From contig CM114271.1 in the NCBI GenBank assembly GCA_050084515.1, forward strand, positions 23,870,001 through 23,934,000: DNA of 64,000 nucleotides. The letters run 5' to 3'. How positions within the stretch are numbered: the first letter of the stretch is position 1; every line of letters begins with the position of its first letter. The DNA is from Blasia pusilla (lineage: Eukaryota). The notes under the pieces are model-generated. The model worked only from the letters and a program-made list of their open reading frames with translations, was not told the DNA's origin and did not search any database. A program made the translations under genes and the position numbers. Positions 4,977 through 49,690 of this stretch are shown here, piece by piece.

Positions 4977-4980
4977 GACT

Positions 4981-5105
4981 TGTCGTGCGCATACACATCG
5001 CTACACAACATACATCGCTGTCATCGAACACACACACGATCCCATGCTAACTCATGGCATCCAAACAATGAGACAAGAAGTACTAAAATATCTCGAATCG
5101 CCCCC
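4981..5105 (-). repeat. Copy A terminal repeat B2 (~125 bp, 3' end, ends CA)
   Basis: Near-identical to 5586-5718 (tgtcgtgcgcatacacatcgctacacaacatacat...aatcgccccc on +). Confidence 0.9.
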
Positions 5106-5112
5106 AACCCTA

Positions 5113-5583
5113 AAGTAAGATCCAATCTCTCTCTACACCATCTCACACCATAACTCTCAAAGGTGTGCACTCTCTCTCATGTCAAACCAAACCCACTCTC
5201 CTAATGAGAGGCTTGGGTTACACTCACAAGGCAAGGGACCATAGCTCCGCCGCTTCATGCCAAGAGGTTCAACAAAGAGAGAATGAGCTCTCAAACTCTC
5301 TCTCCTTGAGGTATACCCCTCCCCTCTCCCAAGCTCTCTCAATGATAACCTATTCTCCCAAGTCACCTCCTTGGCCCTTGACCTGATGTAGGAGGTCAAC
5401 GGACACTTACCTAAAATAGTAAGTTCCTCAATATCGCTCCAAATGAGCCGAAACGAAGGGGAAACCTGCTCTCCCACGTTTCCGGGGGCCTCAGCAGGTC
5501 ATCCTCGACCTACTAAGCGTGTCCTCCACTACTCACGAAGGCGCTCTACTAGATCTCACCAATCTATCCTAAAAGACGTGACA
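5113..5583 (-). repeat. Copy A repeat A2 (~470 bp)
   Basis: Direct repeat of 13731-14239, lacking a ~40-bp internal segment. Confidence 0.9.
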
Positions 5584-5585
5584 GT

Positions 5586-5718
5586 TATTGTGCGCATACA
5601 CATCGCTACACAACATACATGGTTGTCACCGAACACACACACAAACAAGCACGATCCCATGCTAACTCATGGCATCCAAACAACGAGACAAGAAGTACTA
5701 AAAACTCCAATCGCCCCC
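5586..5718 (-). repeat. Copy A repeat B1
   Basis: Copy of B2, separated from the start of A2 by a 2-nt spacer (AC on the element strand). Confidence 0.9.
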
Positions 5719-5897
5719 CTAGCTGGTGGTTAGGTCCCTCTAACTCCAAATAGCCATCTATCCCTACTTACCATGATATACATCTCTCGGACGCTAAGAG
5801 CAAGAAGATCGGGTGCTCATGTGGCCCCATCGTTAGTCGCCTTCCTGTCATCCATGTCACAGAAAAAGTCGGAATCAAAACCTACCTAGTATCTCCT

Positions 5898-6038
5898 CTA
5901 TGTACATCTGGGACACATCCATCGTCCCCGAGGAATCCTAGTGAGAGGTGGCGTCAGACATGCCATATGCCAACCTCTCGAACATCCATCACAGACTAGC
6001 ATCGTGGCCGCACCACGGAAAAAACCACACAATATACA
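5898..6038 (-). pseudogene. PHD finger (C4HC3) at the C-terminus of the copy A polyprotein
   Basis: CILCG...MLVCDGCSRGWHMACLTPPLTRIPRGRWMCPRC, in frame with the integrase tail (ORF 5898-6386). Confidence 0.92.
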
Positions 6039-7150
6039 AAGCAAGCTTGTAGGAACTACTGCTAAGCTCGGATCTACTGTACCATCAATGTTAGGAAGGT
6101 GACATGGCGCACAATTACGCATATGGTCCTTCCATACCATACCATCGCATCCCTCTAGTAAGAGAACACCGGATGGCAAAACGTCACGCACTCTCAGGAT
6201 AGTGCGCCCTGCAGTCACATCCAACGTCATCGGTGCCGTCTGCTGCAAGTAGACATAATCTCCGTGATGAAAACTCCAGATAGTTGGTCGATAACCACCA
6301 CCCCGAATAGTCGCATACCTCAACATATCCCGATGCTGCGCAATCGCCAAGTTCTTGAACGCCATGGGCATCACTCTCCAAATCAACTCAGCCCTCTAAG
6401 ACCATGCTCGCATCCATACATCTAGGTCATCAAGGTCCAGCACCTCACCAGCATCTCGACGAATGGCGGCAGGTAAATCTGGCTCTCGGCCATAAAGTAG
6501 CAAGTATGGTGAAAAAGACGCTAAGGATGCCTGCATGCTGAATCTGTATCCCATCGCCAACCAGGGGAACTCGACGCCCCAATCTCCTAGGTGACCTCTC
6601 TGCAAGCCATACTTGGGTAAATCCCTCGTCACCATCTGCACAACTCTCTCCGCTAATCCATCCGCCTCGAAATGATCTCGCGAAGTCGTGCGATGGTCAA
6701 TTAGCACCTGATCACACAAGGCCTGGAACTCATCGCAAAACTCGATACCCTGGTCTGTCAACACCTCATCTGGTGCGCCATAATGACTCAACACTCTGTC
6801 AAGGAAGGCATAAGCTACTCCCTTACTCGCTTTGTCAGGCAATGCAACCAACTCGATCCACTTTGAGAAGTGTTCAACCATCACCAACACATAACGACTG
6901 TGACGTTCCGTCAAAGGCAAAGGTCTTGCAAAATCCCAACTCCATCTATACCCTAAGCCCATGATCGGTAATGGATGCAAGTGTGGAGTTAGAGCATTGA
7001 AAATGCTCGGACCCGATCATACACTATGCACCTGGCAACAAACTGCTAAACGTCAGTCTGCATGCCTCGCCACCAATACTGAATCTCGAGCAAGTTGTAC
7101 GTCCACTTCACCCCAAAGTGACCCAACTTCTCATGGGCATGCTGCACTAG
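6039..7150 (-). pseudogene. Copy A DDE integrase (HHCC zinc motif + rve core)
   Basis: HAHEKLGHFG; WSWDFARPLP...VEHFSKWIE...VLTDQG...ADGLAERVVQ. Frameshifted. Confidence 0.92.
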
Positions 7151-7559
7151 TCGTCCTCTCTGCAAAGGATGCAGCACTACGCGTACCCTGCCATCCTCCC
7201 AAACCCTCAAAACATGTGTCCCCTCCCAATGGAACTGTCTGGCGGGTTGTAGGATCCGATCCCGCTCTCTAGCACCCACGGTGCTCGCAATGCTGCCAGT
7301 TCGAAGGTACTCCAAGACTACTCCATCATCATGAATATCTCGGCCATCTATCATCTCCTCACTGGCCTCACGATCCAAGGACTCTCCACTAGACCTTGTT
7401 ATCGAAGTCTCCACACTCTGGCTCTCCATAGCCAACATGCCTAAATAGGCTGACGCATGCCATCCTGGCACTGACTCCTCATCACTCTCTCCATGCCATC
7501 AAGCTCCAGTCACATCTCGCTGACTCAGGCATGGGTTAGGACTCAACCCATCTGCATCT

Positions 7560-8930
7560 TGGTTGAGCATCCTAGGTCTATGTACCACCTGAAAAATCAT
7601 ACTCCTGCAACAACAGAGCCCATCTCACAAGCTTCCCTGTAAGCTTGTTGGACTCCATCAACCACTTCAGTGGTTGATAATCACTGATGATGGTAAAGGG
7701 GTTGTCGAATAAGTAGCACCTGAAAAGCGCGACAGCCCACACCACAGCCAAGCACTCACCCTCATACGAGTTGTACTTTGCCTCTGCAACGTTGTTTGAG
7801 CGACTAGCGTAAGCCACCACGAACTCTCTACCCTCATCATCATGCTAGGTGAGCACCGCTCCAAGCCCCAACATGCTCCAATCTGTGTGCAATTGGAAAG
7901 GACGCCCCGTGATCGGTCTCCTCAAGATGAGCGCGGATGTCAACTTACCCTTGAGCAACTGAAATGCTTGCTCGTGCTTATCCCCCCAATGCCACCCGTA
8001 ATCCACCTTGGTTAGCAAGGTCAGCGGCTTTGCAATCGAACTCAATCCCTTAACGTACCGCCGATAGAATTTCGCCAATCCTATGAATGCGCGAACACGA
8101 CTCACATCTGTGGGGCGTGGAATGCGTGAGATATCCTTTACCTTTGTCTGCTGAACACCAAGACCCCCTAGGTATATCGTATGACCCAAGTTCTCAATCT
8201 GGTCGTAGAAGAACTTGCACTTGCCTAGATGTAGGTTCAGCCCATGTAATTGCAATCGTCGAAACACCTCCTCTAGATCTCGCTCATGCTCCTCAACCAT
8301 GGCGCTAAAGATTACGATGTCATCAATATAACGCCTAGCAAAATCCAGACCAGCCAAGATCCTATCCATGACCCTCTGAAACTCAGCCGGGGCGTTCTTT
8401 AACCCAAATGGTAAGAACCGCCACTGGTACAAACAATCCTTCCGGTGAGGATCGATGCCCCAAAATGCCGTCTTCTCCCTGTCCTCCAATCTGATAGGCA
8501 ATTGATGGTATCCGGCTCGCAAATCCAATGAACTGAAGATCTTTGCGTGACCAATCGCATCAAAGATCTCCTCAGGGGTGGGCATGGCATACCTATCGGA
8601 CTTTGTCTGCCGATTGATAGGTCGGTAATCCCCACACATCCGCCTATCCGACCAGTTGCCATGCACATCCTTCTTGGCGGGCATGACAGTGCGGATGGAT
8701 ACTCCCCGTACGATATCTCCACTAGTCCTGCTCCGACCAAGGTTCTGGCTCCTACTCTGAATCAGAACCCTCTCCATATCATTGTAACTGTAGGGTCGTC
8801 AGAAGATCGGCGTATCACTCGACAATTCAATGCGGATCATGAGTCCCTTCAGCGTACCCAAATCCTCCATGCTAAATGCAAAGCAGCTCCTATAACTCCT
8901 AAGTAACTGATGTATTCGGCACCGCTCTCC
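7560..8930 (-). pseudogene. Copy A reverse transcriptase + RNase H (Ty3/Gypsy type)
   Basis: RMCGDYRPIN, SLDLRAGYHQ, LPFGLKNAP, YIDD, FQLHTDWS, VVAYASR, YEGECLA, WALLLQEYDF. Confidence 0.95.
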
Positions 8931-9299
8931 TCCTGTCAACTTAGGGCCCATATCTGGCTCCCAAGTCTCTATCGTGACTACGGTAGGACTCTCCGGCGCG
9001 GATATCGGTGGTTGCTATGGTGCAACCCTATCTTGAACAACAACACTCGACCGCTCTCCTACACCTAACTGCAAACTGTGATCTCCTCCACATGCAGTGC
9101 CCAAAACCACGCTCGATGCTGTGGCTATCATCTCCTCGCGTACATGCAAAACATCCCAAGAAGTCCAAGGGTGTCTCTCTCAATCTCCCCTCGTGTGTCG
9201 ATCTCCTCAGGTCTCGCCCCCGGCCACTGCCTCCACCGTCTCGGTAGGCATGGGGCTCACAAACGCAACCATTGTGATGTGTCGCGATCTCATCCGACG

Positions 9300-10265
9300 C
9301 TACTCAGCCACTCCCAAGTTGAAGATCCATATCAAGCAGTTCACGTCCATCGCCTGACCCAAGACATGGCGTCGTGATGCCTATGATACTGACGGGACTG
9401 CCGTCACTCCTAGGGGAAATCCCATCGCCCGCTCTCTCTTGTTGGCATTGGGCTCCACCAACCTCTGAACCTGGTCATCCCAAACCAAGCCACGACCGGC
9501 CTCCTTGTATGCATGGGAAGCAAGAAAGCTCACAAACGTGGGAAAGGCTGCCCGCGGCCTGCCTACCCTGTTAACCACAGTCAGCGGTGGTCGATCATCG
9601 TGCCTCACTGCTTGTGATCGACGACCTGGATCTAGAATGGAATCCACTAACAAATGGGAGGGGCGCTCCACTTTTGCATACGCCCTCCGTAACACCGCAT
9701 GGGGCACCAAGTTGGTCCACCATAGAGGCGGACGATGGGCTCTAGAACCTACACTCGCCGCATCCAAGAACACTGTTGGGCTGATCCAAGCACGCACCTG
9801 ATAAGCACTTGTCACCACCCGTGACTGGAGTCTCCTAAGATGGGCACATTCTCCAGAATGTAGACTGGAGAACGAGATTGGTGCTCTTGCAACTTCCGTA
9901 AGACCCTCAACATCTCCCAAAACAACCTGGACCAAGTGTCACCCAATCCGCTGCCTCGTCCAACACTCAATTGGCCCTGACATGGCCAACCGGCAATGAC
10001 CAAATCAATGGTCCCTACACGCTCTAAGTCTTGCGCCCCCAACAACGAAATATCCCTCGATAGGGAACTCTGGTACCCCTGTACTCCGGACGCAGATAAT
10101 AAGTCGGTAAAACATAGGCGTTACTGCACCACATGTCGTAGTGAGACGCGCCTTGCAACATCATCACTCTCCACATACTGGTACTGCTGTACTCGCGCTC
10201 TTGCCTGCAAAACAACAACTAACCCGCTACTAATCCCTCCAAAGAGATCTAACACTCAAATATCC
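9300..10265 (-). pseudogene. Copy A DNMT3-like C5 cytosine methyltransferase domain
   Basis: Motif I VLDLFGG, IV IDLVIAGWPCQG, VI YILENV, VIII region LDAASVGSRAHRPPLWWTNL, IX ERAMGFP, X LGQAMD. Frameshifted. Confidence 0.9.
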
Positions 10266-10679
10266 TCCTCCGGGGTACACCACATAATGGATGTGGTATC
10301 CAAGGGTGTCACCGTGGCACTCCTGCTACCTTGGGTTCCTCAGACCCGTCATGCTCTGGTGCAAACACCTCGCTCCACACGGTTTGCACGTGCTCATCTG
10401 CCAATGGTCGGAGCTCCTCAGTCGAGCCCCACAAGGGCACCTCTCCTCCACAGAATGATGCGACAACCATAACACTCCTCTCCGTATAAATGTTAGGAAC
10501 GGGAGTATCCTCTGCATTGACATGTCCCTCAATCAAATCACTAGGACAAGTGATGGCACTGCTAAATGTTGCCAAGGTCGCCATCTCTCTTGGCCGTTGC
10601 TCGATCACTGCACATGTGAATCGAACGGGTAATGAGCTAAGTCGCCCATCACCTGACTGCCATCCTGGTCTGTAGGAAG

Positions 10680-11000
10680 TTGACTCTTCCCAGTAATCCA
10701 GGGAAAACCCCATCGGGTATAACACTGCTCCACCAACCAAGATGTCGTAGGACTCTACATTAGTCACTATCGCCTTCGCTCGCACCACGGACTCATCTGT
10801 AGGATGTCCCGAGCGAATCCTCACCACCACCTCCTCTCGGGTGATATACTGTGTGGTACTCGCTCCACCCAAGGATGTATATATCCGGAATGGACTACAC
10901 TCCATATCGGCTCTCGTCAAGCCCAATCCTCTGAATGACGCTTTCCCCAACATCAGGGGTTGCGCTCCTGAATCCAACAAGACGCGCTGCAGACTAAAAG
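10680..11000 (-). pseudogene. Copy A aspartic protease
   Basis: VLLDSGAQPLMLG ... YDILVGGAVL in ORF 10309-11019. Confidence 0.85.
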
Positions 11001-11899
11001 CTCTACCTCCGGGACTCACCTACTGGAAGACCTCTCCTCGGTTATCTAGCAACACAACACCAAGAGAAGCCATGGCACGCTCTCGGGTCTAGCGGGCATC
11101 TCCGCCATCCTAGCAGCCGCAGCGTGCCATGAATCTAACGTGGACGGTCCGAGCATCCGCTCCAAGGGCAGGTCCATCACCTCCTCTGCAATCACCTCTG
11201 AACGTGATGCAAGAACTCCAACTCCACGCTCACATAGCGTAGCGGCCAGCTGAAAAGCCTCGGCGGGCATACCCCCCAACGTCATAACATCGAAGCAAAA
11301 ATAAAGGAGCGCAGTACACAATGGTGGCCCCTCCCAACAACGTGCTCGACACATGCCCCTCTTGAGCATCAACAATAGGAGTCATCGCACTTGCTTCTCC
11401 CATCGCCCTCCATGCCTGCACACCAACTACATCACCAACTCTCTAGGAACTCTGATCAGGACCCATCGATGGGGTCCTCATTGCCTCGAACAACGTGAAA
11501 GATTGAGGAAGCCTAGTCTGTTTCCTGGCTTCCCCTCGCTATGGATCCAACTGTTTGGCTGCTCCACGCGTCACAACTACGGCTGCCTCCATCTGCGCAA
11601 CCCCGAACATCCAACCAGGATCCTCCATATCTCTAGCTCCTCCATATGATGTCGATGCCATGGATCCGGCATCGGGTAATCTCAATGCCATAGCGGCAAT
11701 TTGCTCCTGTAGCTGATGTATCTGAGCAACCATCCTAGCCTCACGTTCGGCATCTCCCTCAACGCATCTAGGTGGTTGGACTCTACCTCCTCCACGAGCA
11801 GCTCCACCACCCTGTCGGGCATCTCCAGCTCCTCGTCCCCCAACAGGACCACTTGGTGCACGATCTCTAGGCCCACCCTGACCGGCTACTCGCTCTGGT

Positions 11900-13170
11900 G
11901 CCCTCTCTAACTCTCGATCCGGACATAATTCAGGATGTTAACTAAAACACCTAGCGCATGTATGACCATACCTCTGATAATAGTCACACTGATAAACTCC
12001 TGGTGCAGCACCATCTCCTCCTCCATGCTGAGGCACACGTCCATGACCCTGACAAGAGCAATCGCGTTGATGATAGGCTCCACCACATGACCAACAAGTA
12101 ATAGTAGGCGGCTGCTGCTGAGCCGCATATGAAGGCGCACGTCTCTGTGGCACGGCCTCTTGGTATCCTCCCTGAGCTCATGGTGCCACAGTCGATCTGT
12201 CTCGAAGTCCATGTTGCTGCACAAGAAGTGCAGACAATCGTGACTGCTCTCGCCCTGAACCCATGGTGGCTATGCTCTCCTCCGCCATGTTGTGCTCAAT
12301 GTTCTCGGCGTTCTTAAACACATTTCTCAACGTAGGGGAGGTGTTCATAAGAAGCACCCCTCCCACACCCGTGACCGCAGGGTCCGGTCGAGCATCACGT
12401 ACCATGACTGGATAGCATGAGCCTCTATCACCCCTTGAGTGACGTTGATCACCCGGTGCAAGCGAGTGTAAGCCTCCGTAACTTCTCCGTCCGTACCCCT
12501 TGATAGCTCGCCGTCCATTCAGCAAAGAACTCAACCACAGGGTTGAACCTAGGACAAACCGGACTGGACGATGCAACTGCCCCAGTCCAACTCACCCCTC
12601 CTAGAACATCACTAATGGAAGACGAAGTAGCCTCTCCTAATTCCTCCTCCTCATCTGGGAATGGCTCTATCCATGACACGTAATGTGGGTCATAGTAGAG
12701 CCTCCATGCCTCGATCTCACGCGCATATCTCTGAGAGAACTCATGGTAATCGTCCATGGGCGCCCCTTCTAAATGCTGGAACATACCGTTCCATGCTGTA
12801 AACGGGTTGAACTCTCTAGAGTTCGTGGCCCGCTGGAAGTCGCACCAACTCCTAAACTCTGCTATGAAATCGTGCAACTCAATCGTGCCTACTGCAACTG
12901 AAAACCTACGCGGTCCTCTACCCGGGTCATCCATCTCGTACTCCCAACTGGTAGGACCACTCACAATGTGTGGCGATGTGATCACAAACTCCTCTACACC
13001 CTCCCCCTGGTCTGACGATGACACAGAAGGAGGTCGAGGTGGTCCCTCACGTGAAGACCCTCGGAACCTCACGCCACTCCTGATAAAACCTCTAGAGCTA
13101 CTCTCGGGTTCACCACCTCGGCTCTCAAAGTCCCGAACGGACGCCGTAATGACCCTCGTGCCCCTCTCAC
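11900..13170 (-). pseudogene. Copy A gag with two CCHC zinc knuckles
   Basis: ORF 12449-13072 plus TCWSCGGAYHQRDC and YQCDYYQRYGHTCARC (degenerate CX2CX4HX4C). Start codon not determined. Confidence 0.75.
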
Positions 13171-13730
13171 TTGATCACCTGGTCGACGGTGATGGCGCCG
13201 CCAACGGTGGCTGCTGCTTTAGGGTTTTGATTTTTACCCTAAAATTGGCCATAACTTTCTGCTCACAGCTCCAAATTGCGCACCATCTATTGGACAACTT
13301 GCACAGCTTCAAGATCTACGATGGCGTCAAAAAATATTTTGAATCAAAAAATCCTATAAAAACTGATGGGGATTGTCGTAAGCCCCAACGTCTCTTTCTT
13401 CTACACAAAATTTGGCAGCGCTTCCGCGCTGATTTCTCCCAATGAAAATGTAAAACCTGTGAAACGAAAAATCACAAAGCTACATGGTGCTCTCGAGAGC
13501 ACCGGCGTGAGTAATCCGCCCCCACACTCAAATTCTACAAACATTTGGGCAGCGCTTCCACGCGCCACTCTTCCGTACGAAAAAATGGTAAAGGAAAACA
13601 ACAAACTAAATGATTCTTGCTCCCGTGAGCACTCCCATGAGTCATGAAGGAGGGTACACGGTCCCTAGCCTGCAAGCATAGCGAAACTCCAGCAAGCTCC
13701 CGCATTGTAGCTCTCATTCTCTCTTTGTAG

Positions 13731-14239
13731 AGTAAGATCCAATCTCTCTCTACACCATCTCACACCATAACTCTCAAAGGTGTGCACTCTCTCTCATGTC
13801 AAACCAAACCCACTCTCCTAATGAGAGGCTTGGGTAACACTCACAAGGCAAGGGACCATAGCTCCACAACCTCATGCCAAGAGGTTCAACAAAGAGAGAA
13901 TGAGCTCTCAAGCTCTCTCTCCTTGAGGTATACCCCTTCCCTTTCCCAAGCTCTCTCCATGGTAACCTATTCTCCCAAGTCACCTCCTTGGCTCTTGACC
14001 TGATGTAGGAGGTCAAGGGATACTTACCATAAATAGAAAGTCGACCATATACTTAAAATGGTACTTACCTAAAATAGTAAGTTCCTCAATATGGCTCCAA
14101 ATGAGTCGAACGAGGGGAAACCTGCTCTCTCAGGTTTCTCGGGGCCTCAGCAGGTCATCCTCGACCTACTAAGCGTGTCCTCCACTACTCATGAAGACAC
14201 TCTACCAGATCTCACCGATCTATCCTAAAAGACGTGACA
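13731..14239 (-). repeat. Copy A terminal repeat A1 (5' end, starts TG)
   Basis: Matches A2. It is followed directly by leader sequence, not by B. Confidence 0.9.
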
Positions 14240-16204
14240 GACTACAAAGAAATGTCAAACCATTCAAAAAATGCATGAAAATTGTAAAAAAAATCCTAGA
14301 AGAGCAAGAAGTCAAGTTAACATAGGGGGGATGTTGTGTGTTGAGCAAATACACATTGCAACACAATGTATGTCGGGTTGTTAACATCCACATAACAAAC
14401 ATCGGCGATCTTCCCATCACACAAGTAGATCCATACACATAGAAACATATACTCAGACATGTAAAATTAGACCAAAAAATAAAATTAAAAAATAGCTCAC
14501 CCAATCAACTCCACCCTCAAATCTACATTTAATCATCAAGCCACATCCACCCTCCATCGTGAGGAAATTTGGATTCTAATGCTCATGTTCCTACCAAATA
14601 TTAAAACAATGAGTGCTCTAAGGGCAAAAGATGAGAAAAATGGCTAGAACGAGCAATCTCCCCATCTTTCATACCCTTGGGAAGAGACAAAATAGCTCTT
14701 TCTCCCAAAATAGCCAAAAATGATAACTTTGCGCATAAAGATTATTAGGTGATTGTTGACTTGGTCATCTAGCCCGAAATAGCAAAAGAGAGGTTTTTTT
14801 AGAAATAATAATCCCCACACAATGTGATTGTCTCAAATTTCATTCGATCACTCAAGAAAAAGTTATGTCTAAACAATCCATTAACTCCCTAAACCATTGA
14901 CACTGTAAAACTCTACATGTGAGCCGACTATAATGTGACAATCTCTATGTGAGTGGTGTCCAAAATGTTTTTGGATACCTTTGAGTGGTCCCATTAGGGC
15001 ATGTAATATAGACCCTTATGAACTTCCTATGACATTAAGAGAGGAGTCTTACATCACATGGTCAAAAAATGGTCTCTATATCTCAATGTACCTTGTAGTA
15101 GACATAAAACATTTGACCAACCACTTCATGCATGTTCTTTATCCAATCTTTAATATTTAAATATTTATGAATTCTATAATATAAAAATCATATGAGTTCT
15201 TGATTTGTCAAGAGTATCTATGTTCACATTACTTAAGCAATGTTAACATCCCGACTTAAGTAATGTTCATGATTTCATGTAAAAATCATGAACATCCACA
15301 TAACAAACATTACATGAAATCAACAACAGATATAAGTAGTTGGGCAATGGAGATAAATGAAACTACTAGAGAAAATTGGACTTTTAAAATGTCCATGAAA
15401 TAATACTGCTTATTATGCATAAGTGTTGATGTAATGAAAACTCCAAGAGTGTATGATTAGATGTCCTCTTCTTTGCAAGTAAGTTGTGAACAAAATGACA
15501 TTATTATTTGTTCCACATTATTCATGCATCCATAATCTTCAACGCTATTAACATGCCCACACATAACCAAAAACAATTGCTTCATGTTGGAAAAAATGCA
15601 TTCTAGTCCACTTCTTATTTTATTTTTTCTATGTGAAAAACATGTGTCATAAAATGATAACCTTCAAATTATTTGAGATTTTCATGAATTGCTCTTTAAA
15701 TCAACTATATTATCATTAGAGGATTGATTGTAATTTTCAACACTTTAGTTGCAAGACTCATGGCAAATGATTGACAAAGAAAAATGTCAAATTTTCTTAA
15801 AATTTTGTAATTTCAATCATGTATTATAAAAATTCTTAATTTATACTAATCTCACTAGTATAAATTAGTGTAGAACCACACTAGTCTAATAATTGGGCCA
15901 CTCAAAGTTGTGACCACTTTGAATCTTATTACAATTGGCAAAACCTCTTTTCCGAATATTCCCACTCACCTACAATAGAGAGGGGGGCGGGCGGTTTTAT
16001 GCAAGGCCATAACCAAAATGGACGGGAGGATTTTGGGATGACCACGGTATAGGGAGGTTCCAATGTGGGGACTCCTCGTGGCGAGAAGACAACAAAAGTA
16101 GTGATCATGGCTAGGTGCAAACGACAATGGACTCAGACCTACCATTGGCAATAATGGGAATTTCTATAGAATTATCTCGTGGGTGCTATCTTAAGATGTA
16201 CGAG

Positions 16205-16568
16205 TATGTATGTTGCCCCTGCGATGCACAGGTGATTTCGTTTTCCTCTTAATTTAATGATCTTTAAAAAAAAAGGGAACATGTGTCAACAATAAGGCCT
16301 TAAAAGGGACAGGTGTCAACAATAGAAGGACCTTGAAAGGATATGTGTCATCACGGGATGAGGGTTTCTCTAACCCCATCCTCTTTTACTTAATTACTAG
16401 CCGATGCCTATGCTATGCACTGTGATACTTAATATTTTTTTTTTACCTCTCCTTAATTCAACTCCCTCTCCAAAGTGACGTGAGTCGACATCATAGGAGC
16501 CCTTAGAGGACATGTGTCAACACCTAATGAGGGTTTCTTCAAACCTCGTCCTCTTTTCATTATATAGA
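16205..16568 (-). mobile_element. Two tandem short non-autonomous Helitron-like elements
   Basis: The unit 16397-16568 reads A|TCTATATAATG...imperfect hairpin...CTAG|T on the minus strand. The adjacent unit (~16205-16396) shares gacatgtgtcaac/atgagggtttc/tcctctttt blocks and a gcccctgcgatgcacagg hairpin remnant. Confidence 0.5.
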
Positions 16569-35961: not shown

Positions 35962-36900
35962 AGAAAGGGGGTAAATTTTCTTGTACAACAAGTGGAAGAA
36001 TAGCTCATATAAATCTCAAATATTCTTGGAATAATAGATCTCTCCCCTTTACATGAGCCAAATAATCCATTAAGATAGGTGTATCTCCTTAAAAAAACCT
36101 TCTAGTTACAATAAGGATGGCTAAAGCCCAACTCACAAAAAAGTTCTAAATCCAATCACCATTGTGGAGGAAACCCCCACATCTCGAGAAGAACTCGTCA
36201 AGATACCTGCCACATCTTTTAGGATAGATCTAGTAGAGTGCCTTCGGAGGTACATGAGGACACCCTCAAGAGGTCGAGGATGACCTGCTGAGGCCATGGG
36301 TAACCTGAGAGAGCAGATTTTCCCTTCGTTTTGGCTCATTTGGAGCCATATTGAGGAACTTATTATTTTGGATAAGTTACCGTTTGAGATATAGTTGACT
36401 TTCCACTTTTAAAAGTGGCCCTTGATCCGCTACAACAGGTCAAGAGCCAAGGAGGTGACCTGAAAGCATAGGTTACCGTGGAGAGGGCTTGGACGAGGGA
36501 AGGGGGTATACCTCCAAGAGAGAAAGAGAGAGCTTGAGAGCGCATTCTCTCTTTGTTGAACCTCTTGGCATGAGGCGGCGGAGCTATAGTGCTCCTTGTC
36601 TTGTGTGTGTAACCCAAGCCTCTCATTAGGAGAGTGGGTTTGGTTTGACATGAGAGAGAGTGCACACCTTGGAGTGCTTGGTGTGACATGTTGAGAGAGA
36701 TGTGATTGATATACAAAGAGAGAATGATGGAGTGAGAAAGCTTCAATAGAGGAGCTCGCTGGTCACTCGCTTTTGGTGCAGGTTGGAGGTTGTGTTCCTT
36801 GTTCAGCAAGCAAGAGCCGCTCTGTTTTTTATTTTATTAAGCGATTTTTTGTGTGGGAGAGTGGTATGCAGAAGCGCTGCCAAAATTTGGTTAGAAATTG

Positions 36901-39100
36901 TGTCGCGACCCTCATAACCAAACGAGCGCCAAGCGGAACATCCGAACTCTAGTGGGCTCACACAAGGATGGTTTGCGCTTTGGAGTAAGAGAAACACAAG
37001 GGCGAGATGCGAGCGCGGCGAGAGTTTCAAGTGTTTCATGCATTTATGGTTGCGACTAAGGAAATCGGAACCAAATGCAGAACCCAGACTTAAGAGAGGT
37101 CGAGTCTTCGAAGGAGACGTGGCCAAGGGGTGAGAACCGAACTTGGGACGCAACTAGCGTTTAGAGTTTCTGAATATACTTTTGATCATAAATTTAAGTC
37201 CTAAGATGAGTGTGGGACAAGTAAGATAGCATTGGAAAGCTTATGTAGAGCCGATTCCTACGCATCAAAAATCTTGGAAAATGCTTGAGCAGAAGCCGAG
37301 ATATGGACCAAAACTGACTATACAAAGAGTCGGATTAAGGGCCCAAAAGAGGGGCCCGGGCGCCCTTTCCCAAAGGTAGGGGGACCCCGGGAATCCCTAG
37401 AAGTACTAGTAAGGGGAAAGGTCTTCAAGGGTGCTTGGGACTCGAACCCCACTTTGGGCGCCGCGGGGCAACTCAAGGGCACGGAATGGATCGGGAGTTT
37501 TGGCGTTGGGATTCCAAGCCCGAACCAAGTCCTATAGAGTTGGATCCCAACTTGTGACTCATACTGTTGAGTCTTGGTTGGGGGCTCATGCGAGGTCCAT
37601 TGGAGAGTTGGGACCGCTAGGCCCGCAAACGCCGTTTTAGGGTGCCTAGACTAACCATAAAGTTTGTTCCAAGTCTTAGAAGACTTGCCCATCTTGGGAA
37701 CCTAAGAATGAGGGAAGGTTGAGCTTGATGAGGTGCCGAGTCAAGGACTCCGTGGTTTGGAAGGCTGCTTGACCCAAACCCAACTAATGTGAGTGCGCTT
37801 GGATGCAGGTTGGCGATGAGAGCGTGTCCTACTGAACGTACGCTTCCGCAACATTAAGATTGACGTTCAAGGAGAGTAGGCGCACGACATGTGGTATCTG
37901 AGCTAATGCTTGGTGAGCGAGAACTTAGGGTCGTGGGAAGCAATTGGACACTTGGGGAAAACCCAAGGTAGCGGCGAGGCCCCGATGCTCGAGCAGGGAT
38001 GCAAGAAACAAGGAGGAGATCTGAGTGTGGCGGCTTGAAGATGTCCACCAAGGGAGATGAACCATGGAAACGCCGAATCAAGCGATGCAAACTGAGAGAT
38101 GAACCGATGCCGGATCGGGAGCCGGAGCCGGAGGAGGAGACACCGGCTCCCAAGGTGCCAAACACCAGACATGAGGGTGTTCCGAACACAGACCCTCGCG
38201 CGCGGCCAATGGCTCCAAACTCAAGTGAACCGGAATTCTATGCCCAACTAATGGAATATATGAAAATGATGACCGAGCAAGTGTTCTTGCAAAGCAAGCG
38301 GATTGCGAAGCTCGAGTCGGACCGAGCTTCAAGTTACGGAAAAAGCTCTGCAAGACAAACCTACCCACGCCATTCCCTGGGTGTTCTCGCAATGTGAAAG
38401 ATTTCCTTACGGAGATGGAATACTACTTCGAGGCGCAGAGGGTGGCGAAGTAGGATAAGGTGGCACTGGCGGTCACCTTTCTAAAAGATCATGCGCTACA
38501 GCGATGGACAGCTCTACGAGAAGAACATCTGGCCGGTGGTTCACCTTTGAGTTGGGTGGAGTTAGGACGTTGATTGGTGACCGATTCACCTCAGAGTACC
38601 CAGAGATCCGCAATAGGGTAGAGCTCGTAGGACTCAGGCAGACTGGGTCCCTTGGCGCTTACGTGAGGGAGTTTAGCGTGAAGTTGAACTCCATTCCTAA
38701 GATATATGAGGCATCTCAGATAGCAATCTTCATCGGTGGACTCAAAGTGAGTGAGGAGAAGGCACCGTACAGAATGTCGGAGTTTCCGAACACCTGCGTG
38801 GAGCTTTTGAGGCTAGCGGAGTGGATTGGGGACAATGAGGTCCAAACACCGAAGCCCTTTGAGACAAATTTTTTTTCCAAGAGTTTGTAAAACAAAGGGG
38901 CATCCAAGAGAGTCTAGAGTGGGGTTGAGCGGGATCAAGGAGAGCCACTCAACCCGATGGTAAAGCGACAAGAATGCCATGCTAAGCCAAACGGAGCGCA
39001 GCATCTGAAATCAGGAAATGGCAAGGTGGTATACTACAACTGTGGCAAACTTGGGCAGATGGAAAACTTTCCGAGTTCACTCAAGAACCGGTTGTCATAC
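36901..39100 (+). mobile_element. 5' remnant of a conventional Ty3/Gypsy element (LTR, PBS, gag) inserted in the copy B leader
   Basis: LTR TGTCGCGACC...GGCGCACGACA at 36901-37889. PBS tggtatctgagc (tRNA-iMet-like) at 37892-37903. Gag fragments (EYYFEAQ..DKVALAVTFLKDHAL; LRQTGSLGAYVREF) and a broken zinc knuckle near 39030. Right boundary approximate. Confidence 0.85.
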
Positions 39101-40690
39101 TTTGAGTAATGGGAGTGTGACAACCTCAATGGCCTTCGTCCAAGACAAACGGTTGCAGGTGAGATTAGTTCACGAGATGCCTGTGCGAAAGGAGTTGGTG
39201 AATGCCATTACAAGGAGGAGTCTGATTATTTATGGTGGAGCCCATCACCGGCATGATTGGGCCTGTCAGGGCATGGAGGAGGAGATGCATGGTGTTGCAC
39301 TAGGAGTTTATCAGTGTGACTATTGTCAAAGGTACCGTCACACACGCGCTATATGTTTCAGCCTACACCTTGAATTGCGCCCGAACCGAGGGCCAGAGAG
39401 GGCACCATAGTGAGTTGCCAGTCCGAGTGGGCTAGAGGTTGTGCACTAGGTGGTCCCGTTGGGGGACAAGGGGTTGGATTTGCCCGAGGGGCTGGTGGAG
39501 TTGCCCGTGGAGGAGGTAGAGTTCCGCCATCTAAACACGTCGAGGGAGATGCCCGGCGTGAGGTTGGGATGGTTGCTCAGATACAACAGCTACAGCAGCA
39601 GATTGCCGCTATGGCATTGAGGTTACCCGATGCCAGATCCATGGCATTGACATCTAGTGCAGCAGTCAGAGATAAGGAGGATCCTTGCGGGATGTCCGCG
39701 ATTGTGCAATTGGTGGCAGACGATGTTGTTACACGTGGAGCCACCGTAAAGTTGGATCCAGAGAGAGGGAAAGCCACGAAACTTACCAGGCTTCCTCAGT
39801 TTTTCACGTTGTCCGAGGCGATAAGGACCCCATCGATGGGTCTTAATCAGAATTCTTGGAGAGTTGATATTGTTGGTGTGCACGCACGGAGGGCAATAGG
39901 AGAAGCTGGATAACCGGGGAGAAATCTTCTAGTTGGTAAGTCCACGAGGTAGATTATTTTGTCCGCAGCCTGTCCTGTTAGATTTAGGAGCGCAACCCCT
40001 AATGTTGGGGAAAGCGACATTTACACAGTTGGGCCTAACGAGGGCCAATGTGGAGCATTTTCCATTCCGGATACAAACATCCTTGGGTAGAGCAAGTACC
40101 ACAAAGTTTATCATCCAACATGAGGTCATGGTGAGGATTCACCCAAGAAATCCTACAGATAAGTTTGTGGTGCGAGCCAAGACAATAGTGACTGATGAAG
40201 AGTCCTACGATGTCTTGGTTGGTGGAACAATGTTGTATCCGATGGGGTTTTCCCTAGATTATTGGAGGAGTCAGCATCCTACAGATCAAGATGGCAGTAA
40301 GGTGATGGGCGACTTAGCTCATTACCCGTTTGATTCACTGGTGGAGTGATCGAGCGAAGGCCAGGGGAGATGGTGACTTTAGCAACATTTAATAGCGCCA
40401 TCACGTGGCCTTGAGATTTGATTGAGGAGCATGTCCATGCAGAGGACACACCCACGTCTGACACTTTTAAGGAGAGGAGTGTTATGGTAGCCACATCATT
40501 CCGTGGAGGAGAGGTGCCACTGTGGGGCTCGCGTGAATAGCTCCGACGCTTGAGAGATGAGCATATGCAGACGGCGTGGAGTCAGGCCCTTGCATCAGAG
40601 TGTGATGGGTCAGAGGAACCCGAGCTAGCCAAGAGTGCTCTTATGACCCCTTTGGACACCACCCCGATTGAATGGTGCATCTCAGAGAAG

Positions 40691-41660
40691 GGTATTCGCG
40701 TGTTGGATCTCTTTGGAGGGATCAACATTGGCTTAGCTATTGTTTTGCAGGTTGGAGTGCGCGTCCAGCAATACCTGTACGTTGAGATTGATGATTTTAC
40801 AAGGTGCACTTCACTTCACCATGTGGCTTAGTTACGCCTCCGATTTCCCAACTTGTTGTTTGTGTCCTCCATGGAGGATTACCAGAGTTCCCATACCGAG
40901 GGATATTTCATTGTTGGGGGCGCAAGACTTCGAGCGGGTAGGGACCATAGATTTTGTCATTGCTGGTTGGTTGTGTAAGGGACAATCGAGTGCTCGATGA
41001 GATAGCAAGTTAGCTGACTCTTGGTCCCGATTATTTTGAGAGATGATACGGATCTTGCGACACTTGCAAGAGTATCTGTCCTATTCTCCATCATACAATA
41101 TGGAGAATATGCTGATTTTGGGTGATTCAAGATCTTGAGTGATGACGAGGGCACATCAGGTGCGCGCATGGATCGGCCCAACAGTGTTGTTGGATGTGGC
41201 AAGGATAGGTTCACGAGCACATCACCTGCGTCGTTGATGGATAACTTGGTGCCACATGAGGTATTGCGGAGGAATTATACGAGAGTGGATCGACCCTCTA
41301 ATTTATTGGTAGATTCTATTCTAGATCTAGGTTGTCGATCACAGGCAGTGAGGCACGATGATTAAATGTCGTTGACTGTGGTCAGCAAGATTGGCATACC
41401 ACGGGCATCCTTTTCCACGTTTGTGAGTTTTCGTGCTTCCTATGCATTCAAGGAGGCCGAACCTGGCTTGGTTTAGGATGACCAGGTACAGTGATTCGTG
41501 GAGCCCAATATATGCCGATAAGCGAAAGTGAGTGATGGGATTTCCCACAAGAGTGATGGTAGTACCGTCACTATCAGAGGCATCACGATGTCATGTCTTG
41601 GGTAAGGCAATGGACCTGAACTGCTAGACATGTATTTTCAGCTTAGGAGTAGGTGAGCAG
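40691..41660 (+). pseudogene. Copy B DNMT3-like methyltransferase domain (decayed)
   Basis: GIRVLDLFGGINIGLAIVLQVGVRVQQYLYVE; IDFVIAGWLCKG (PC motif mutated); downstream motifs interrupted by stops. Confidence 0.85.
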
Positions 41661-42687
41661 CGTGGTTTGAGGTTGCTGAAGATTACAGTTGTTGCATTGG
41701 TGAGCCCCATACCTACCGAGAATCTTGAGGCAGTGGCTGGGGCCGAGACTCGAGAAAATCGACACACCATGGGTGATCGGGAGAGACACCCTTGGACTTC
41801 TTGGGATGTTTGCTAGACATGCCAAGAGATGGCAGCCACAACATCGAGCGCGGTTCCAAGTACTGCATGTGGAGGAGATAAGAGTTTGCAATTGGCTGCA
41901 AGGAAGCAGCCAAGTTCTACTATCCGAGACAGGGTTACACCATAGTAGCCACCAACACCCCCATCGGAGAGTCCTACCATAGTGTAGATGGAGACTTGGG
42001 AGCCAGATATGGGCCCTAAGTTGATAGGAGGAGAGCGGCGATGGATACATCAGTTCCTTAGGAGTTATAGGAGCTGTTTAAACATATTTTGCATTTAGCA
42101 TGCATGATTTGCGTACGTTGAAGGGTCCAAGAATCCGCATTGAGTTGTCAAGCAACACGCCAATCTTTCAATGAACCTATAAGAATAGTGATATGGAGAG
42201 GGATCTAATTGAAAGTAGGAGCCAGGACTTGGTTGGAGTAGGACTAGTGGAGATGTCGCACGGAGAGCATGCATCTACCACTGCCATGCCCGCCAAGAAG
42301 GATATGCATAGCAACCGGACGGATAGGCAGATGTGTGGAGATTACCAACCTATCAATTGGCAGAGGAAGTCCAATAGATATGCCATGCCCAACCTTGAGG
42401 AGATCTTTGATGCTATTAGGCATGCAAAGATCTTCAGTTCACTACATCTTTGAGTCGGATACCATCAGCTGCCTATGAGATTGGAGGACAGGCAGAAGGA
42501 AAAATTTTGGGGCATTGGTCCTTACGGAAAGGATTGCTTGTACCAATGGCGGTTCTTACCATTTGGGTTAAAGAACACCTGGGTTAAGTTCTAGAGGGTC
42601 ATAGATAGGATCTTGGCATATCTGGATTTTACAAGGTGTTATATTAATGACTTTGTAGTCTTTAGCGCCACGTTTGAGGAGCATGAG

Positions 42688-43005
42688 CATGGTTGCACAA
42701 TAATGGACAAATCCTCCCTTAGAACGGATATGGACAGACAAGTCTGAACACGTCCATGGACATGGGTTCCAAGAGGTGGGATCCACACTTTTAGTCCATG
42801 ATGGAAGTCAATGCAAGGATGAGAGGAGCAATGAGTGAGGAGGGAGTGGAGGTGGAGGTGGAGGGAGGAAGAAATAGGGGAGTATGGAACACGAAGGCAA
42901 GTAAGGGGAATGCAAAAGAAGGGAAAGGTGGGGCCCATATGGACAAGTCCTTCCATAGGACGGACATAAGTTCACCGACATGGACTTTGTCCACATGCAA
43001 CCTTG
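42688..43005. mobile_element. hAT-type MITE (318 bp) inserted in copy B RT
   Basis: Termini CATGGTTGCA / TGCAACCTTG; perfect 8-bp TSD AGCATGAG at 42680-42687 and 43006-43013; repeated subterminal GGAC motifs. Confidence 0.9.
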
Positions 43006-43639
43006 AGCATGAGCAACATCTGGAGGAGGTGTTTCGATAATTGCAGTTATATGGGATGAAGCTACATCCAGGCAAGTGCAAGTTCTTCTATAAACAGATT
43101 TGAGTAGCTGGGTCATATGATATACCTAGGGGGCCTTGGTGTACAGCACACAAAGGTAGAGGCTACTTCACGCGTTCCTTGCCCTACAAACGTGAGTCAA
43201 GTTCGTGCATTCATGGGATTGGCGAACTTCTATCAACAATACGTCAAGGGTTTCAGTTTGATTGTGAAGCCGCTAAACTTTTTGACCAAGGTGGATTAGG
43301 AGTGGGACTGGGAGGATGAGTTGGAGAAAGCGTTTTAGCTGCTCAAGGACAGGTTGACGTCCGCGCCCATATTGAGGAGACCAATCAAGGGGCGTCCTTT
43401 CCAATTGCATACCGATTGGAGCATGTTGGGGCTTGGAGTTGTGCTCACCCAGTATGAAGATGAGGGTAGAGAGTTTGTGGTGGCTTACGCTAGTCGCTTA
43501 AACAAAGTTGCAGAGGCAAAGTATAGCTTGTATGAGGGTGAGTGTTTGGCTCCAACGTGTGGGCTGTCGCACATTTTAGGTGTTTTCTATTCGGCAACCC
43601 CTTTACCATGATTATTGATGACCAACCACTTAAGTGGTT

Positions 43640-44653
43640 TATCGTGCTCCTACTCTCCTTGAATGTTTATCTTTGTTGTTGCGGAAGCGTGCGTTTAGTA
43701 GGTCACGCTCTCAACGTTGATCTGCATCCAAACATGCACTTTGGTTAGTCGGATCTGGATCAATCAGCGGGCTAAATTTCCGAGTTCTCATCTCGATCTC
43801 TCATGATCATCAAGCTCAACCTTCCTAGTTTCGCGGTTTACAACACAGGAAAGTCTCGAAAGACTTGAGACGGACTTTCTAGTCGGTTCAGGAACCTCAA
43901 ATGGTGTTTCGCGCTTCCCGGTTCCAACTATCTTATGGACATCCAATGAGTCCCTAATCGAGACTCACAAAAAATGAATCGCCGGTCAGAATCCAAATAT
44001 GGTGTACAAAGTCCACTCCCTTGGATCAAGTTTGGGTTCCGAGTTCCAATGTCAAACTCCAGTTCCATCCCGTGCCCTTGAGACGCCGTTTGGTGCTCAA
44101 AGTGGGGTTTGTATTCCAAGACATCTTGGAGAGACTCCCCCTTATTAGTACTTGTGGGGATCTCCAGGGTTCCCCTAACGGTAGGGAAAGACAGCCGGGC
44201 CCCTCAAATTGGCCCTTCATCCAATTGCTCTCACGATCATTTCCGGCCACTTTCTCAGCCTCTGCTTATGCATTGCTGAGATCTTTGGTGCATTGGAAGT
44301 GCCTCAAGATAAGCTTTCCAACTCACCCTTATTTGTCCCGAATGCATCTTGGGGCTAAATATTATGGTCTTAAACACAGTCAAATTCCCCAAACGCTAGT
44401 CGTGTTCCAAACTTGTTCTCACCTCTTTGGCAACCAACCTTCCAAGACTCAACTCATCTCAAGTCTTCGTTCGCGTTTGGTCTAGGTTTTTTGGTCGCGA
44501 CCACAACTGTGCACCGCGTTTTCTCTCTTGGACTTTTCCAAGAGACCTTCCAGAAGCCTCTCCAAAGCGCGATCATCGCACCGTGAGTCCACTTGAGTTC
44601 TGATGTTCCGCTTGGCGCCTATTTGGTGTTTTTTGGTTATGAAGATCACGACA
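43640..44653 (-). mobile_element. Solo LTR of the conventional Gypsy family, antisense, replacing the copy B integrase region
   Basis: Reverse-complement homologue of 33139-34161. The left flank is RNase H (..QPLKW) and the right flank is the PHD tail (..RGRWMC). No TSD. Confidence 0.88.
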
Positions 44654-46761
44654 CTCGGGGACGATGGATGTGTCCCACATGTATATAGAGTAGGTAGTTC
44701 TAGATTCCAACTTGTGTGTTAAATCTTTTAGGATAGATCGTTGAGATGTAGTAGAGCGCCTTCGTGAGTAGTGGAGGACAATCTCAATAGGTTGAGGATG
44801 ACCTGTTGAGGCCCCGAGAAACCTAAGAGAGCAGGTTTCCCCTTCGTTTCGGCTCATTTGGAGCCATATTGAAGAACTTACTATTTTAGGTAAGTACCAT
44901 TTTTAGTATATGATCGACTTTCTATTTTTGGTAAGTGGCCCTTGACCTCCTACATCAAGTCAAGAGCCAAGTAAGTGACTTGGGAGAATAGGTTACTATG
45001 GAGAGAGCTTGGGAGAGGGGAGGGGTATACCTCAAGGAGAGAGAGCTTGAGAGCTCATTCTCTCTTTGTTGAACCTCTTGGCATAAGGCGGCGGAGCTAT
45101 GGTCCCTTCCCTTGTGAGTGTAACCCAAACCTCTCATTAGGAGAGTGGGTTTGGTTTGACATGAGAGAGAGTGCATACCTTTGAGAGCTATGGTGTGAGA
45201 TGGTGTAAAGAGAGATTGGATCTTACTTTATAAAGAGAGAACGAGAGAGTGAGAGAGCTTCATGGGGGAGCTCACTGGTCACTCGCTTTTTTTGCAGGTT
45301 GGGGACCGTGTTCCCCGTTCAGCGGCTCATGGGAGTGCTCACCAGAGCAAGGGCTGCTTTGATTGTTCTTTGCATTTGCCAATTTTTCGTGTGAAAGAGT
45401 GGCGCGCGGAAGCGCTGCCCAATTTCTGATAGGGATTGATTATGGAGGCGGATTGTCCCATGCCGGTGCTTTTGGGAGCACCATGTAGCTTGTTGATTTG
45501 TATTTTTATAGGTTTTACATTTTCGTTTGGATAAATTAGTGCGGAAGCGCTGCCAAATTTTTTGTAAGAGAAAGAGACATTGGGATTTATGACAGTCCCC
45601 ATCAATTTTTACTGGAATGTTCAATTCTAAATATTTTTTGATATTGTCGTAGATTGTGAAGCTATGCACCTAGTGCAATAAACAATGCAAAATTTGGAGT
45701 TATGAGCAAAAATTTATGGTCAATCTTGCAAAATTGCCATTGCTAAGCAATTTGTAGGGTTAAATTGTTCAAACCCTAAACGAGCCGCCACGCCAGCGGC
45801 AGCCTTCGCTGTCATAGTTACCCTCAACGGTCTACCATCGACGGTCAACCATCACCGTCAATGGTCCACCGTCTGTTGTCCACCCTTTGGTTGCCATTGC
45901 CGCCGTTACGGAGTGGAGGGTCTTCCACGACGTTCGTTGATTCTCTAACTTGCGTCGTCACCACGTACTTTGTTTTGGCCGCCACCATCATCGCAGTTTT
46001 GTCATCAACCAATGATGGTAGATAACCTCCGGTTATGGTGTTTGAGTTTTGATTTCATGCTCCTATGTTGTGATTGGTAGCCGTTTGACGACAATCGAGT
46101 ACCGTGCCGTGACGCCCGTAGCCGCAACGCGCCGCCGATTGCCGCGCCGTGCCGCTCGTGGCCGTACCGCAAGGTCTCGATTGTGAAGCCACTCCATCAT
46201 TGTGGAACATAGTGTGTGTTTATTATTGATTGAAGAGGGTATGCCGCCGAGTGCTGCATCCCACCATCGAGGGTCGTTCCGTGCCGCCTGCAACCCCGCA
46301 CCGTTCCGCTGCAACCGCACTGTCTATCGAGGAGTTTTGAGCAGCGTCAGCACGGGAGGAGTATGACTTGGTGACTGGAGGAGTTGTCTCCACGACCGAT
46401 TTGGGGTCGAGATTTGCAGTTCAGGTTACCTATTCTGGATTATGGGATTTTGGTAATCCCATAATCCCTCACACGTCCTTTACCCTACAGGTGTGAGGGA
46501 TTATGGGATTTTAGTAGTTTATTTGGGGATATTCGGTGTGTGGATGTTGAGAGCATCATTTATGTATGTGGTTTAGGGGACATAGACCTATGTGGGATGT
46601 CCGGAGTTGAAGGTAGGTTATCGATGAGATGATAGCTTGGTCGATTTGCCGCACCACGCCGCTTGTTGCCGCACGTTATACGTCTTGGGGAGGGAGAGTG
46701 TAGATCGAGTGCCGCATGTTTGGGATAAGTGATTGAGGGATTACTCGCGAGGCGAGAGTGA

Positions 46762-49370: not shown

Positions 49371-49690
49371 TTCACAAGTGCAGTGATCGAGCAACGGCGA
49401 GGAGAGATGGCGACCTTAGCAGCATTTAGTAATGCCATCACTTGGCCTAGTGATTTGATTGAGGGACATGTCCATACAGAGGATACTCCCGTTCCTAACA
49501 TTTCTATGGAGAGGAGTGTTATGGTAGCCACATCATTCCGTGGAGGAGAGGTGCCGCTGTAGGGCTCGACTGAGGAGCTTCGACGATTGGCACATGAGCA
49601 CGTACAGACCGCGTGGAGTGAGGCATTTGCACCGGAGCGTGACGAGTATGAGGAACCAGAGGTAGCAAGGAGTGCTACGCTAACACCCTT

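Follow-up and report, generated by a model that had tools for sequence, protein, structure and literature searches.

A DNMT3-carrying Ty3/Gypsy-type retrotransposon with split direct repeats and a DDE integrase in Blasia pusilla

Structure and coding content of the Blasia element

We analysed a 64,000-nucleotide stretch of Blasia pusilla DNA (contig CM114271.1 of assembly GCA_050084515.1, positions 23,870,001 to 23,934,000; hereafter the window, numbered from its first letter), in which positions 4981-14239 are occupied by a retrotransposon, here called copy 1, that carries split direct repeats in the order A...B-A-B in place of ordinary long terminal repeats (LTRs). The sense strand of copy 1 is the minus strand, since 15 of its 25 open reading frames (ORFs) of at least 100 amino acids are minus-strand, and all its features below lie on that strand. 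The 5' end of the element is repeat A1 (13728-14239; 512 bp), which starts with TGTCACG at 14239 and is divided into a predicted unique 3' region (U3, 14239-13905), with a TATA-like GGGGTATA at 13928-13937, and a predicted repeat plus unique 5' region (R-U5, 13904-13728). Abutting A1 is a predicted self-priming primer-binding site (13713-13727), complementary to a stretch within A1 (13890-13904) that represents the predicted first bases of the transcript. The coding region (5898-13171), which includes gag-like ORFs and is interrupted by stops and frameshifts, holds in sense order a DNA methyltransferase (DNMT, 9381-10117), a reverse transcriptase (RT) with RNase H (7845-8795), the integrase zinc domain (7046-7495) and core (6396-7013), and a PHD finger (5898-6392). 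About 1 kb that lies between the leader and the gag-like ORF in another copy of the window (45724-46779 in copy 2, and also present in copy 4, both described below) is missing from copy 1 (at approximately 12240-13240).

The 3' end is organized differently from the 5' end. A G-run, CTAGGGGGGCG in sense (5712-5722), is the predicted plus-strand primer (polypurine tract) and lies immediately 5' of repeat B1 (5586-5711; 126 bp), which is followed by a 2-nt spacer (AC in sense, 5584-5585); B1 ends in ..ACA and A2 begins with TGTCA.., so that the two form a junction of abutted ends. Repeat A2 (5111-5583) is separated from B2 (4981-5098) by a 12-nt G-rich insert (5099-5110) similar to the G-run before B1, and B2 forms the 3' end of the element, ending ..CGCACGACA (CACGACA) at 4981. 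The whole is flanked by a 4-bp target-site duplication (TSD), GACT, at 4977-4980 and 14240-14243. These features bear out the original prediction, which had been made from the sequence of the window and had proposed an A of about 500 bp starting TGTCAC and a B of about 125 bp ending CACGACA.

Protein domains were assigned by a Pfam scan of 10 ORFs of copy 1, out of 15 on the minus strand that reach 100 amino acids, plus the three in-frame ORFs of the best-preserved relative (locus L001). The domain order in copy 1 was DNA_methylase, RVT_1 with RT_RNaseH_2, Integrase_H2C2, rve, and PHD; L001, where a single frame with two in-frame stops extends over more than 2,100 codons, adds a zinc knuckle (zf-CCHC) and complete RNase H and integrase zinc domains. 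Among solved structures in the PDB, the RT-RNase H was matched best by Ty3 Gag-Pol (E 3e-86), and the integrase part matched prototype foamy virus (PFV) integrase (E 3e-10), which together with the rve domain upholds the earlier assignment of a DDE integrase of Ty3/Gypsy type. The Phage_integrase (tyrosine recombinase) domain was found in none of the 10 copy 1 ORFs or the three L001 ORFs. The methyltransferase (PF00145), also claimed originally, is situated between the gag/protease region and the RT, and its best PDB matches were DNMT3A, DNMT3B and DNMT3C (E 5e-11), ahead of plant DRM and of the bacterial HaeIII methylase (E 3e-4). Database relatives included a PF13650 aspartic protease fused with DNMT, and others that join DNMT, RT, RNase H, integrase and PHD in single proteins of 1,500-2,100 residues. 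The nearest named relatives came from the liverworts Calypogeia, Marchantia and Riccia and also from Sphagnum, with more distant ones from Cymbomonas, in agreement with the plant origin that had been proposed.

By these data, the element is a Ty3/Gypsy-type retrotransposon of a DNMT3-carrying lineage, with the gene order gag/zinc knuckle, protease, DNMT3-like, RT, RNase H, DDE integrase, and PHD finger. It has the RT - RNase H - integrase order of Ty3/Gypsy elements, as well as TG..CA ends (TGTCA... ...GACA) and a duplication within their 4-6 bp range, but it does not have the two identical LTRs that such elements possess at insertion: its repeat pairs are identical at insertion but split, and its predicted reverse-transcription signals are out of phase with its integrase ends.

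Repeat layout in the window and in metagenome loci

Self-BLAST of the window located three copies beside copy 1, all on the plus strand, and the four copies constitute one family with 80-90% identity. Copy 2 is complete (44717-54953; A...B-A-B) and comprises A1 (44717-45230), the G-run (54175-54185), B1 (54186-54313), a B/A spacer (54314-54315), A2 (54316-54826), and B2 (54827-54953), flanked by the duplication TGTG (44713-44716 and 54954-54957). It is inserted within the older copy 3, whose internal sequence resumes exactly past copy 2. DNA contigs and RNA reads contain joints (44716>54033 and 44706>54954) at which other members of the family skip copy 2, which shows that the insertion is bounded by the start of A on one side and by the end of B2 on the other. 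Copy 3 is thereby split into a 5' part (36208-44716, with A1 at 36208-36708) and a 3' part (54954-55970) that reads internal sequence (54958-55106), A tail (55107-55200), B (55201-55329), a second A after a spacer (55332-55842), and a last B (55843-55970), such that relative to copies 1 and 2 it has one additional A-B unit plus a deletion. A comparable deletion form was seen in a metagenome locus (L025:3200-3600), where the PHD coding region runs straight into the R-U5 portion of A, with B and flanking DNA after it; this portion begins near the predicted transcript start, and the form is comparable to the junction at 55106/55107 where the A tail of copy 3 begins. Copy 4 (58137-64000) is truncated by the window end and has an A1 (58137-58650) with no adjoining B, followed by its predicted primer-binding site (58651-58665).

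To these copies we added 47 metagenome loci obtained from a scan of metagenome contigs with the RT ORF as query; the same scan of the viral contigs and genome contigs collections yielded no relative. Duplicate loci were counted once (L012 = L032, L009 ~ L035, L031 = L033, and others), the A, B and leader of locus L028 served as probes, and junctions were read directly. The long metagenome loci keep the gene order of copy 1, DNMT and PHD included. All nine 5' ends in this census read flank-A-leader with B on neither side (copies 1-4, L013, L020, L026, L028, L032), so that a complete A+B repeat at both ends, the arrangement that would have spoken against the proposed layout, was seen at 0 of 9 5' ends. 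Among 16 independent 3' ends that reach past B1, seven were B-A-B (copies 1, 2 and 3; L022, L023, L028, L030) and one was B-A followed by the contig end (L020). L028 is a complete A...B-A-B element, and with L020, L022, L023 and L030 it represents a second family that has the split layout with different A and B sequences and an RT only 60-70% identical in protein to that of the window family. The layout is present in independent related loci and is thus neither chance nor a one-off rearrangement; the original prediction had argued against the latter from three copies with a common layout and a fourth with a 5' A but no B.

The claim that the element has TG..CA ends and generates TSDs also stands, with perfect 4-bp duplications in five of seven complete elements (copies 1 and 2, L013, L026, and L032+L012); the target duplications of the old copy 3 and of L028 match at two of four positions. 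Three of the five, L013, L026 and L032+L012, are complete A-int-B elements, where int stands for the internal sequence, with the duplications TACA, TACA and ACCA, respectively. That L013 and L026, which are unrelated insertions, share TACA may be coincidence or a weak target preference. B ranged from 115 to 128 bp in length, far above the 4-bp duplication. L013 also contains approximately 3 kb of extra DNA between its DNMT and RT regions (L013:6849-10000), which includes a tandem array (8526-9072). Members of this superfamily also form nests at L028:1148-1805 and 14713-16236 and in L040/L041, where inverted or fragmentary pieces of DNMT, RT, integrase and PHD lie beside the main elements.

Junctions, priming signals and transcripts

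Repeat A alone has features of a complete LTR, namely a TATA box and the complement of a priming site. A 16-nt inverted repeat, perfect in copies 1 and 4, pairs the bases right after A1 with a site in A that lies about 175 nt short of the end of the repeat. All four 5' ends of the window family have such a perfect complement of 10-16 nt, starting 0-4 nt past the provisional end of A, an offset that becomes 0 nt when the A ends are set as given here. The L028-type family has a different pair, CTCAAAGAAC / GTTCTTTGAG, at the same two places, so the sites co-vary between families; by exact match this pair was found in L020 and L032 (9 nt each), L013 (13 nt, offset 8) and L028 (via A2), and was not seen in L026. 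The internal complement is preceded by the TATA-like motif, at a distance of 28-30 nt, in both families. Tf1 starts reverse transcription from an 11-nt primer that is freed by an RNase H cut, and the site after A1 appears to match this type of self-priming, with the first bases of the transcript predicted to pair with the primer-binding site. ARAGORN predicted 0 tRNA genes in the window, and a tRNA-type primer-binding site or a tRNA-like 3' element was rejected. A near-copy of the primer-binding-site sequence also lies in U3 just upstream of the predicted transcript start (e.g., 58458-58471; L028:12197-12206) and could form a hairpin with the first bases of R, with 14-nt arms that are 86% complementary in the window family and 10 nt that pair perfectly in L028; speculatively, this hairpin may stop plus-strand strong-stop DNA from snapping back on itself.

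At the other end, a conserved block, ACCACCAGCTAGGGGGGCGA, is found 5' of B1 in 11 related loci, and the G-run within it is taken as the putative plus-strand primer. The G-run sits before B1 and not before A2, from which it is 115-128 bp upstream. Folding of the G-run/B1 region was no better than that of shuffled sequences (z +1.38).

The two kinds of internal joint are regular to the base. All eight B/A junctions read ..ACA-NN-T(G)TCA.., with NN being AC in four, GC in two and AT in two. Read as inverted ends, the two termini of the integrated element are similar (TGTCAYG / TGTCGTG), and the B1/A2 junction is therefore the element's two integrase ends in abutted form, ..GACA-NN-TGTCA... At eight of nine A/B joints, the last base of A is directly joined to the first base past the G-run, without insert; the ninth, in copy 1, additionally holds the G-run copy noted above, as would be expected if the plus-strand primer had been left in place. 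The A2/B2 joint may hence represent the predicted ends of the cDNA joined together. The A1/A2 and B1/B2 identities within a copy were 95.1% (445/468 aligned positions) and 93.9% (108/115) in copy 1, 93.7% and 93.7% in copy 2, and 89.6% and 90.2% in L028, while B copies of different elements are only ~89-90% alike. The equal divergence of the two pairs within a copy implies that both are made anew at each transposition.

We then compared these predictions with raw stranded RNA reads of two runs labelled with the same species (X22 and X23), matched at 88% likeness, among the best-supported positions listed. Assuming the usual stranded library type, the transcripts of the family are sense. RNA depth (X22/X23) was high over B1 and U3, with 115/230 where B1 begins and 63/128 where R of A2 is predicted to begin, but was only 16/6 at the A2/B2 joint and approximately 5-9 beyond B2, so that it drops 4-fold to 20-fold before the A2/B2 joint. 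These depths are blurred by multi-copy mapping and fit an RNA that ends in A2 with a single B. Seven RNA molecules in each of two runs start at 54806, which is 21 nt before the A2/B2 joint of copy 2. At 55075-55106, 45-64 RNA reads per run pass from the G-run block into a B start resembling that of the L028-type family, which indicates that the source organism expresses the second family too.

Proposed integration at an internal junction and its alternatives

If the primer-binding site follows A1 and the plus-strand primer precedes B1, as predicted, the cDNA made by ordinary reverse transcription would have B-A units as its LTRs, and this is the basis of the explanation we consider best, although we give it about an even chance of being right. 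The genomic RNA would span from R in A1 to R/U5 in A2 and hence contain one B, and its reverse transcription would produce a linear B-A-int-B-A cDNA. The integrase would skip the tips of this molecule and nick both strands after CA at the abutted B/A junction of the left LTR; such nicks in ..GACA-AC-TGTCA.. would leave two recessed CA-3'OH ends with 2-nt 5' overhangs, like processed retroviral ends. The original cDNA tips would be joined to each other, either as happens when a 2-LTR circle forms or through end joining once strand transfer has taken place, giving the A/B joint, and the integrated product A-int-B-A-B would be a circular permutation of the cDNA. In such a scheme, A-int-B elements might be by-products (from a one-LTR circle or from cuts at both junctions) or later B1xB2 deletions, and the extra A-B unit of copy 3 could have come from unequal crossover. 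There are precedents for the proposed cut: HIV-1 integrase has reportedly been seen to cleave the LTR-LTR junction in vitro. PFV integrase is described as cutting 2-LTR circles at their palindromic LTR-LTR junction, which yields processed ends (PMC1180852).

Several points weigh against this explanation. A circle or end-joined cDNA has two identical B/A junctions, and A-B-A-int-B should then arise as often as A-int-B-A-B, but it was seen at 0 of 9 5' ends, against seven 3' ends with B-A-B and one cut B-A. Such polarity might arise if the left LTR became double-stranded first, or if adjacent A repeats were lost faster by recombination. Eight of the 16 3' ends consist of B and then unrelated DNA (L006, L007, L009/L035, L012, L013, L015, L017, L026); some of these could stem from repeat collapse in metagenome assemblies, which is unlikely for L013 and L026, as they are degenerate old copies. 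In the window family, moreover, A ends in ..TTTA and not in ..CA. The cDNA form, the transcript start and the poly(A) site are predicted rather than observed, and the RNA evidence is coarse. Finally, joining of the tips seems an inefficient route for such successful families, and a dedicated reverse-transcription route that we did not derive may exist.

One such route would be for reverse transcription alone to yield linear A-int-B-A-B, in the manner of PAT, Ngaro and DIRS elements, with the B1/A2 block templating U3 of A1 and B2, in which case the integrase would act on true cDNA tips and circles or end joining would be unnecessary. Strict polarity and the success of the families would both follow, and in the DIRS model as published (PMC7192593), an internal complementary region mirrors the joined termini and is needed for transposition; B1/A2 is exactly both termini abutted. 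This route is a serious rival that we nevertheless regard as less likely than the first: no priming site was found that could start minus-strand DNA at the B end, as B2 borders unrelated flank and the start of A has no detectable tRNA-like or self complement. The route also predicts neither the base-exact A2/B2 joint, between the end of U5 and the first base past the G-run, nor the G-run copy in copy 1. The routes considered (a second plus-strand primer at the B end, priming from the RNA 3' end, hairpin priming in A2, and the primer-binding-site-like copy in U3) all fail to reproduce both ends together with the A/B joint.

The split layout might also descend from one rearranged master copy of an ordinary LTR element, with A or A+B as its LTR and B2 inherited through read-through RNA. 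The window copies do form a single family, and a few RNA reads span the A2/B2 joint (16 in X22 and 6 in X23); against this, the layout recurs with different A and B in the L028-type family and is reported for Klebsormidium (PMC5890265), and RNA depth falls before that joint. Since B1 and B2 of one copy are as alike as A1 and A2 (~94%, compared with ~89-90% for B between elements), B2 is re-made in each cycle and not inherited separately, and we hold a frozen accident of this kind to be very improbable. An assembly error, or a solo LTR (A2) inserted in the 3' untranslated region with B1 and B2 as target halves or duplicates, deserves hardly any credence. The window is a nest of transposons, which leaves this as a formal possibility alone, but three window copies and four independent metagenome loci have base for base the same junctions, the length of B greatly exceeds that of the 4-bp duplication made by this integrase, the duplication of copy 2 lies outside B2 with copy 3 resuming immediately after it, and DNA contigs from two runs contain A-to-B joints (58 contigs in X1).

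The known element closest to this description is KnitGypsy-Dnmt3 of Klebsormidium nitens, for which a figure legend describes Gypsy domains with repeats "the same as that of a DIRS retrotransposon" (Fig. 4c of de Mendoza 2018, PMC5890265). The layout itself is thus not novel. As published, KnitGypsy-Dnmt3 likewise has a Gypsy polyprotein with a DNMT3-like domain in Pol and A-coding-B-A-B repeats, whereas its host is Klebsormidium and the host here is bryophyte-like. The likeness is judged from the published description; among the named matches listed, 0 of 120 and 0 of 52 were Klebsormidium proteins. The name 'Gypsy-DNMT3' of streptophytes appears in a 2026 preprint (10.64898/2026.05.21.726589). 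The Blasia element is a bryophyte-type member of this known but barely described kind. The available main text of PMC5890265 has 0 occurrences of a PHD finger and gives no TSDs, priming sites or mechanism. That legend is the sole published mention that we found, our literature search on DNMT3/PHD Gypsy elements of bryophytes having returned no further description; the present analysis adds the logic of the junctions, the putative self-priming site, the PHD finger, the 4-bp target duplications, a repeat-less A-int-B form, and a view of how broad the lineage is among liverworts and in Sphagnum.

Other systems share parts of this organization. Circles of IS3/IS30-type insertion sequences contain abutted-end junctions that are cut by a DDE enzyme. 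The junctions acted on by PFV and HIV-1 integrases are similar in their abutted ends, short spacer and DDE cleavage, which for the Blasia element we infer; the retroviral junction occurs in the circle only, with 4 nt between CA and TG, in contrast to the 2 nt found here in the integrated copy and predicted in every LTR. Like elements of the Tf1/Sushi group and of the plant Tcn1 clade, for the latter of which self-priming has been predicted in plants, mosses included (Neumann 2019, PMC6317226), the Blasia element appears to have no tRNA-type primer-binding site and to carry, after the 5' repeat, sequence complementary to the predicted transcript start. Tf1/Sushi and Tcn1 elements are bounded by identical LTR pairs and encode a chromodomain, unlike the split repeats, PHD finger and DNMT found here. 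PAT, Ngaro and DIRS elements have the same A1...B1-A2-B2 repeats and, by the published account, an internal block that mirrors their joined termini (PMC7192593), but their integration enzyme is a tyrosine recombinase, and they are believed to insert as circles and to make no duplication of the DDE type, while the Blasia element combines a DDE integrase with TG..CA ends and 4-bp TSDs and shows no recombinase domain in the ORFs scanned. A link to Troyka elements, which the original prediction had credited with such repeats, is not borne out. Troyka, once classified under Gypsy, resembles the Blasia element in being virus-like and in having a DDE integrase, but is described with ordinary LTRs, 3-bp TSDs and CG..CG termini in animal phyla (Kojima 2025, PMC12440569), and none of its defining features as given there is present here; a term search of that paper gave 0 occurrences each for "direct repeat", "plant" and "methyltransferase". 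Among the papers listed, our search by title or abstract found no other DDE-integrase LTR element with split direct repeats.

Split direct repeats have been treated as a hallmark of tyrosine-recombinase retroelements. Since they occur here with a DDE integrase, TSDs and the signs of LTR-type reverse transcription, the repeat layout is no guide to the integration enzyme. More broadly, and with somewhat less than even confidence, we suggest that a DDE-integrase lineage in bryophytes, and perhaps charophytes, integrates through an abutted-end junction inside each LTR and not through the cDNA tips. If so, joining of the cDNA tips would be obligatory in the life cycle, with the integrated copy a circularly permuted product of reverse transcription, and this would constitute a third way, besides those of classical LTR and tyrosine-recombinase elements, of regenerating a complete element from an RNA shorter than itself, in convergence with DIRS/PAT elements and insertion-sequence circles. 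The published legend offers no mechanism in the text available, and the junction anatomy described above (abutted ends with a 2-nt spacer, a joint matching the predicted cDNA tips, and a co-varying putative self-priming site) allows exact and cheap tests. LTR finders would plausibly mis-bound or miss such elements, and mis-bounding would skew repeat annotation and insertion ages in Marchantia, Sphagnum and other bryophytes, where relatives are numerous.

The presence of two chromatin modules, the DNMT3-like domain and the PHD finger, bears on how transposons handle host silencing. Mismatches between copies, and between reads and the window, are mainly transitions (C>T at 368 and G>A at 437 places in X22), which also make up 16 of 23, 20 of 32 and 33 of 35 of the mismatches between A pairs; such an excess is expected for the decay of methylated cytosines in silenced elements.

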